A DNA stretch of 64,000 nucleotides, from assembly GCA_937907425.1 (NCBI GenBank), contig CALCIE010000065.1, positions 6,191 through 70,190 of the forward strand, in the 5' to 3' direction. A model generated the notes under the pieces. That model was not told the origin of the DNA. It ran no database searches and worked only from the letters and a program-made list of their open reading frames with translations. Of the stretch, positions 57,584 to 57,725 are shown piece by piece (within the stretch, counting starts at the first letter, position 1; each line of letters begins with the position of its first letter). This DNA is from an uncultured Pseudomonadota bacterium. Lineage in GTDB: Bacteria; Pseudomonadota; Gammaproteobacteria; Burkholderiales; SG8-39. The translations under genes and the position numbers were made by a program.

Positions 57584-57681
57584 TGGCGTCCCCACGGGGA
57601 TTCGAACCCCGGTTACCGCCGTGAAAGGGCGATGTCCTCTTGCATGCCATGCAAGCGCTCTCCCAGCTGAGCTATACCCCC
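57584..57681 (-). pseudogene. Chimeric tRNA gene: tRNA-Ala(GGC) 5' part fused to tRNA-Glu(UUC) 3' part
   Basis: The minus strand reads GGGGGTATAGCTCAGCTGGGAGAGCGCTTGCATGGCATGCAAGAGG joined to ACATCGCCCTTTCACGGCGGTAACCGGGGTTCGAATCCCCGTGGGGACGCCA. The acceptor strands GGGGGTA and TGGGGAC cannot pair. Confidence 0.8.
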
Positions 57682-57696
57682 AACCGCGAGAGCGAG

Positions 57697-57725
57697 ATTA
57701 TAGCCATGCTCCCCTTGCGTGTAAA
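57697..57725 (-). promoter_or_regulatory. Sigma70 promoter TTTACA-17 nt-TATAAT driving the tRNA-like gene
   Basis: -10 at 57697-57702 and -35 at 57720-57725 (as reverse complement), about 15 nt upstream of the tRNA-Ala 5' end. Confidence 0.65.

Follow-up and report, generated by a model that had tools for sequence, protein, structure and literature searches.

In Betaproteobacteria the gene of the glutamyl-tRNA synthetase, gltX, is widely followed by a tRNA-Ala(GGC) gene and then by one to five copies of a tRNA-Glu(UUC) gene. This order was found to be conserved in Massilia, Telluria, Herbaspirillum, Noviherbaspirillum, Collimonas, Gallionella, Sulfuricella and others. Thiobacillus-like loci (L003-L012, L024, L025, L030, L032, and L044) are arranged in another way: a tRNA-Thr(CGU) gene follows gltX in place of the Ala-Glu pair, and a divergent tRNA-Val(CAC) gene precedes gltX. 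The position of tRNA-Thr(CGU) beside gltX in these genomes suggests that gltX has changed its tRNA partner from one betaproteobacterial lineage to another.

The stretch of DNA analysed here, called the window in the following, comprises 64,000 nt of contig CALCIE010000065.1 from an uncultured member of the Burkholderiales. Among the matches listed, the nearest GltX protein in the GTDB species representatives is 69% identical to that of the window, which is the level of Thiobacillus and Massilia. The intact allele of the species is an ordinary member of the betaproteobacterial gltX-Ala-Glu cluster with one promoter and one terminator, whereas the version present in the window is 87 nt short and neither of the two tRNA genes is intact.

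Such a locus can be compared with a known problem of metagenomics. Metagenome assemblies are known to suffer from a class of local errors which no read supports (PMC7111523), and both IDBA-UD and metaSPAdes leave non-unique sequence of about length k at the ends of scaffolds (Chen, Anantharaman, Shaiber, Eren and Banfield 2020, PMC7111523). From the evidence presented below we consider the Ala/Glu chimera of the window to be very probably a local assembly error of this kind.

Structure of the shortened tRNA unit

The gltX gene is situated on the minus strand at 57731-59122 and codes for a glutamyl-tRNA synthetase with the Pfam domains tRNA-synt_1c and Anticodon_2. According to the gene callers the protein has 463 amino acids; its length would be 465 if translation began at the in-frame ATG at 59128. 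On the other side of the tRNA operon, and convergent with it, a LysR-family regulator is encoded on the plus strand at 56477-57472.

The shortened unit itself comprises 98 nt on the minus strand (57681-57584) and is preceded by a leader of 15 nt. Scanning recovered a sigma-70-like promoter, TTTACA-17-TATAAT, at 57725-57697 of the minus strand with a match of 11/12. It is the only such site in 57300-58000, where 0.1 would be expected, and it is identical in all intact contigs described below, in which it serves the tRNA-Ala/tRNA-Glu pair as its genuine promoter. A strong intrinsic terminator was found by scanning at 57574-57551 of the same strand, consisting of the stem AACCGGCC, the loop GCAA and the stem GGCCGGTT. 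The first two T of its T6 run (57556-57551) complete the stem, and the terminator as well is identical in the intact contigs. Both elements had been described as retained in the first-pass annotation, in agreement with the scans.

The 5' part of the unit, 57681-57636 on the minus strand, reads GGGGGTATAGCTCAGCTGGGAGAGCGCTTGCATGGCATGCAAGAGG and corresponds letter for letter to positions 1-46 of the intact 76-nt tRNA-Ala(GGC) gene of the same species. It contains the 5' acceptor strand, the D arm, the anticodon arm with the anticodon GGC at 57648-57646, and the first bases of the variable loop. The 3' part, 57638-57584 on the minus strand, reads AGGACATCGCCCTTTCACGGCGGTAACCGGGGTTCGAATCCCCGTGGGGACGCCA and is likewise identical to positions 22-76 of the intact tRNA-Glu(UUC) gene of the species. 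It provides the 3' side of the D stem, the anticodon arm with the anticodon TTC at 57625-57623, the T arm, the 3' acceptor strand and the CCA end, and its length is exactly 55 nt. The AGG at 57636-57638 is common to both parts. The junction block AGGACATCG (57630-57638, minus strand), which is of the Glu type, is an imperfect direct repeat (7/9) of positions 44-52 of tRNA-Ala, AGGTCAGCG. The division into an Ala 5' part and a Glu 3' part, the coordinates and the AGG join had already been given in the first-pass annotation, and all of them match the sequence as well as the intact genes of the species. It had also listed the 3' parts of tRNA-Ala and the 5' parts of tRNA-Glu as missing, which the comparison with the intact contigs bears out.

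No valid cloverleaf is formed by the 98-nt unit. The 5' acceptor strand GGGGGUA and the 3' strand UGGGGAC pair at three of the seven positions (G1-C72, U6-G67, and A7-U66), and the remaining four positions are G-G or G-A. ARAGORN gives a forced 73-nt 'tRNA-Glu(ttc)' at 57584-57656 with two mismatches and two G-U pairs in the acceptor stem and a D stem paired at 2/4 positions. With the Rfam tRNA model (RF00005) the chimera scored 35.1 bits, which is above the gathering threshold of 29 but as a local match, restricted to model positions 6-65, in which the Glu anticodon arm becomes an insertion of 24 nt; the intact tRNA-Ala and tRNA-Glu scored 63.7 and 57.5 bits over model positions 1-71 (full Rfam model). 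The earlier statement that a canonical cloverleaf cannot form was therefore correct, given the three acceptor pairs, the degenerate ARAGORN call and the partial Rfam match. Folding of the 98-nt RNA was no better than that of shuffled sequence (z = 0.14).

The pair G3:U70 is the identity pair for the alanyl-tRNA synthetase. It is present in the intact tRNA-Ala (G3-T70) and lost in the chimera, in which the Glu 3' strand places a G opposite G3. The acceptor stem and the D arm of tRNA-Glu carry identity elements for the glutamyl-tRNA synthetase; positions 1-21 of tRNA-Glu are absent from the window, and with them its own acceptor-5' and D-arm elements. The chimera resembles the class II tRNAs (Leu, Ser, and bacterial Tyr) in that its Glu anticodon arm is found where a long variable arm would be, between the anticodon arm and the T arm. 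Unlike these, it has neither an acceptor stem nor matching identity elements, and it reaches 35 bits compared with about 60 for true genes. As the chimera passes as a tRNA-Glu in ARAGORN and exceeds the Rfam gathering score, routine annotation would list a tRNA-Glu at this place, masking the defect.

The intact locus and the search for the junction

Contigs of the same species were fetched from ENA, JGI and Logan assemblies using the GltX protein and the LysR regulator as anchors. The 463-amino-acid version of GltX matched 21 contigs and the 465-amino-acid version matched one. Twelve distinct contigs (ENA SPAdes, ENA MEGAHIT, and JGI) span the locus, and every one of them carries the exact Ala-spacer-Glu unit of 185 nt. 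This unit consists of a 76-nt tRNA-Ala(GGC) with G3:U70, a spacer of 33 nt and a 76-nt tRNA-Glu(UUC), and its leader and terminator are identical to those of the window. The twelve contigs are at least 99.9% identical to the window, with 0-3 SNPs over 4-6 kb; L083 and L094 do not differ from the window by a single SNP over 4-6 kb, yet they are intact. The JGI contig L001 is intact over the extent that it covers. Two SPAdes assemblies of low coverage (L091 and L092, coverage 4-5) are also intact, which implies that the assembly error is not systematic.

Compared with the intact unit the window lacks 87 nt, TCAGCGG...CCTAGG, that is, positions 47-76 of tRNA-Ala, the spacer and positions 1-24 of tRNA-Glu. 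Consequently, the gap between gltX and the LysR gene measures 345 nt in the intact form versus 258 nt in the deleted form. The Logan contigs of the runs X1 (1921 nt) and X24 (698 nt) have 84 extra letters between 57638 and 57636, which corresponds to the intact form. Independent assemblies of the same population, namely the twelve contigs and these two Logan contigs, thus agree on another, self-consistent sequence. An intact tRNA-Ala followed by tRNA-Glu downstream of gltX had been expected for close relatives, and this is what was found both within the species and across Betaproteobacteria.

One further contig has the deletion. L084 (ENA ERZ777003, NODE_5965, with a SPAdes-style name and cov_4.99) lacks the same 87 nt and shows a gltX-LysR gap of 258 nt. 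It can be aligned to the window without gaps, and two letters inside the junction differ: L084 reads AAGAGG-TCAG-CGCCC and the window AAGAGG-ACAT-CGCCC, so that AGGTCAGCG is found in L084 where the window has AGGACATCG. Both junctions are resolutions of one imperfect 9-nt repeat, tRNA-Ala 44-52 versus tRNA-Glu 22-30, the two copies of which are separated by 87 nt. From one inherited deletion a single junction would be expected. Two sequences in one register suggest a process that aligns ends and keeps the letters of either side; when an imperfect overlap is merged, the letters of either contig can be retained.

The species is contained at about 99.95% identity in more than 40 public metagenome runs from compost, fertilizer, sludge and bioreactors. 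The Logan contigs of 12 of these runs could be placed on the locus; each piece ends at 57638 or begins at 57636 and none crosses the junction, a result to be read with the limit that Logan contigs reveal the presence of rare variants and not their absence. Pieces of the runs X36 and X39 seemed to cross the junction (57630-57662), and these were identified as tRNA-Ala genes of other organisms with AGGTCATCG. Among all indexed runs, the best share of sampled 31-mers was 14/17 for 57560-57715 and 0.95 for 57300-58100, which fits the expectation that all words are present except those spanning the junction. The junction 24-mer of the window was found in none of the JGI metagenome contigs, a collection which is incomplete, given that an exact search with the leader of the species remained unmatched though the JGI contig L001 carries this sequence. 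The junction was equally absent from the first 81 fetched loci and from the later loci L082-L099, hence from all 99 fetched loci (0/99).

The window carries an A at 45122 and an A at 46931, where the covering runs have C (7 runs) and G (7 runs), respectively; these letters are either consensus errors in the assembly of the window or alleles private to it, and they occur in no run examined. This places the source data set of the window outside the runs examined, and the runs bear only indirectly on a deletion specific to its strain. The closest run, X16, shows three differences in 18 kb and has no junction contig. In the public data sets other than the window's own, the junction lacks support.

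Some observations on strain variation and on the surroundings were made in the course of these comparisons. The species is remarkably clonal: over 44001-64000, between three and nine SNPs per 18-20 kb separate the window from sequences of compost, fertilizer, sludge and bioreactor metagenomes of many studies from 2015 to 2025. The runs X3 and X1 have a 9-nt insertion, AACAGAAGC, after 63981 which is absent in the window and in X14; this position is near the end of the window, and the alignment may be unreliable there. At 59219, in the intergenic region between gltX and the DUF445 gene, 13 nt are missing from X37. A tyrosine-integrase-like gene is encoded on the minus strand (53419-54597; Pfam DUF6538, weak Phage_integrase and SAM-like) some 3 kb past the 3' end of tRNA-Glu, and Usp, TerC and LysR genes lie in between, a layout reminiscent of a tRNA-targeted island. 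The same layout from the integrase to the tRNA was seen in other contigs reaching that far (L082, L083, and L085-L088). When the 3' terminal 23-mer of tRNA-Glu was searched in the window with up to three mismatches, one copy only was obtained and no duplicated att-like segment. A remnant of a genomic island or att site was therefore rejected, since there is no second 3' copy, the flanks are the same in the intact and the deleted forms, and the GC content is uniform.

Origin of the missing 87 nucleotides

According to the depth tables of the runs, the flanks are covered 10 to 200 times less deeply than the k-mers inside both tRNAs, which are common to other organisms. Contigs routinely break inside these tRNA genes because the tRNA k-mers also occur in other organisms. 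The Logan contigs (k=31) end 30 nt into tRNA-Glu, at 57613, and the metaSPAdes-style contig L086 (ERZ795070 NODE_447) ends exactly at 57638, which is 55 nt into tRNA-Glu.

We propose that in the organism itself both tRNA genes would be intact downstream of gltX, first tRNA-Ala(GGC) and, after the 33-nt spacer, tRNA-Glu(UUC), with a common promoter and a common terminator. With tRNA k-mers shared with many organisms, the path of the species in the de Bruijn graph would break inside the tRNAs and two dead-end edges would be left: the first k bases of tRNA-Ala would form the end of one, and the last k bases of tRNA-Glu the beginning of the other. A gap-closing or scaffolding step based on overlaps may then have merged both edges, dropping the 87 nt, and no RNA with two anticodon arms would be present in the cell. 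Tips of k=55 were modelled and all end overlaps were scored. The best one comprises 12 nt, AGGTCAGCGGTT versus AGGACATCGCCC, and implies a deletion of exactly 87 nt; here the 'Ala 1-55' edge end is an assumption, as the true k=55 end on the Ala side depends on the other organisms in the sample. The 12-nt end overlap is identical at 7/12 positions, and its first 9 nt match at 7/9. Tip models with k=21 and k=33 resulted in other deletion lengths, not 87. A gap closer and scaffold gap joiners, which merge short imperfect overlaps, are part of SPAdes. A literature search on the details of SPAdes gap closing yielded nothing specific on the acceptance of such a join by the assembler. That the window comes from a short-read metagenome assembly, and which assembler and routine made the join, is what we infer. 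A chimera arising in the k-mer graph itself through the tRNAs of other organisms was also considered and was rejected, as no natural tRNA could supply the junction k-mers.

The case thus resembles the described local assembly errors (PMC7111523) in that it lies at an ambiguous site of the graph, and that the Glu piece of the chimera measures 55 nt and has its boundary at the base where a sister SPAdes contig stops. It differs in the kind of evidence: there, the consensus is without perfect read support, whereas here the support is absent in other public data sets and the routine is inferred. An assembly error had been one of the options offered in the first-pass annotation. It is now favoured by the unsupported junction, the intact contigs of the same haplotype, the differing junction of L084 and the k=55 register.

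A real deletion of 87 bp in the strain of the window, and independently in that of L084, by slipped-strand mispairing or microhomology joining at AGGnCAnCG, is by comparison unlikely. As in known deletions of this type, an imperfect 9-nt direct repeat (7/9) with 3 nt of perfect identity borders the missing segment, and a second contig, L084, has a deletion of equal length. The window might represent a distinct strain with private SNPs whose source reads are outside the runs examined, and either version of the junction might in principle result from mismatch repair in a slippage heteroduplex. However, the repeat is weak, and the intact unit offers a better one. Its best direct repeat is the perfect 8-nt GGTTCGAA of both T loops (10/11) at a register of 109, which was not used; the register of 87 is matched at only 7/9 and shares this score with others, there being more than ten such matches in the intact unit. 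Two independent events in this same weak register would be needed, and it is exactly the register of the k=55 tip overlap, with the breakpoint at the end of a SPAdes contig. Moreover, the junction k-mers occur in no indexed run, the 12 runs are without a crossing piece, and contigs of identical haplotype are intact. If the deletion were real, promoter and terminator would drive a non-functional 98-nt transcript, which would probably be degraded. Its consequences for the cell also argue against it. In run X3 the 10,149-nt contig of the species (depth 53.5) passes from the flank across the 55-nt 3' part of tRNA-Glu without a break, and in X24 one contig spans both tRNA genes. A second gene with the same 55-nt 3' part would break the unitig at its 3' end; the unbroken contigs therefore speak against such a gene, and tRNA-Glu(UUC) appears to be single-copy in this species. 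In Proteobacteria tRNA-Glu(UUC) is the usual sole acceptor of glutamate and in addition the substrate of the C5 haem pathway. The loss of an apparently single-copy essential tRNA gene would therefore probably be lethal, an argument which is suggestive rather than proven. A version in which the deletion is both real and recurrent is quite improbable. In that case the repeat would be a natural hot spot in a compost/bioreactor betaproteobacterium, whose cells would survive by means of a second tRNA-Glu gene or several chromosome copies and would transcribe a 98-nt RNA with two anticodon arms beside gltX.

The junction could also have been formed in vitro, if template switching during library amplification skipped the structured segment and a few such reads became the consensus at low coverage. 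The tRNA genes are strongly structured, the breakpoints have short homology and L084 has a coverage of only about 5x; nevertheless, we regard this as highly improbable, since such molecules are rare and would have to outnumber the true reads, their arising twice in the same register would be unexplained, and the junction words are in none of the Logan contig sets, for which k-mers are needed at least twice. That the unit is a functional tRNA-derived RNA, selected as a regulator or decoy beside gltX which, for example, senses the glutamyl-tRNA synthetase or mimics a class II tRNA, is scarcely credible. The intact promoter and terminator and the class-II-like order of the Rfam alignment (D arm, Ala anticodon arm, 24-nt insertion, and T arm) would be compatible with it. 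On the other hand, the unit is not conserved: all other contigs of the species except L084, and all relatives with Ala-Glu at this place, have two normal genes. Its acceptor strands pair at 3/7 positions, the G3:U70 identity pair is lost, the fold is not better than that of shuffled sequence, and the two deleted contigs disagree at the junction. A literature search for hybrid tRNA genes derived from tandem arrays found nothing relevant. The suggestions of a chimeric RNA, of a loss of two tRNA genes and of a tRNA-derived regulator, which had been put forward from the window alone, are consequently not supported, as the junction is absent from the read-derived data sets examined; likewise, the expectation that an RNA with two anticodon arms should be made is not supported.

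Significance of the fused tRNA genes

A local assembly error, the reading we prefer, is mainly of importance for quality control. On this reading the locus is a clean and reproducible case in which two neighbouring tRNA genes of a metagenome contig were silently fused by an assembler. The fusion strips tRNA-Ala(GGC) and probably the sole tRNA-Glu(UUC) gene from the deposited genome and would distort tRNA counts and completeness scores. The signature of length k, that is, a retained piece of exactly k and a deletion register equal to the best tip overlap, may serve to flag the same artefact elsewhere.

For the biology of the organism the result has little consequence. The chimera is very probably no real feature of the cell, in which an ordinary gltX-tRNA-Ala-tRNA-Glu cluster is almost certainly present.
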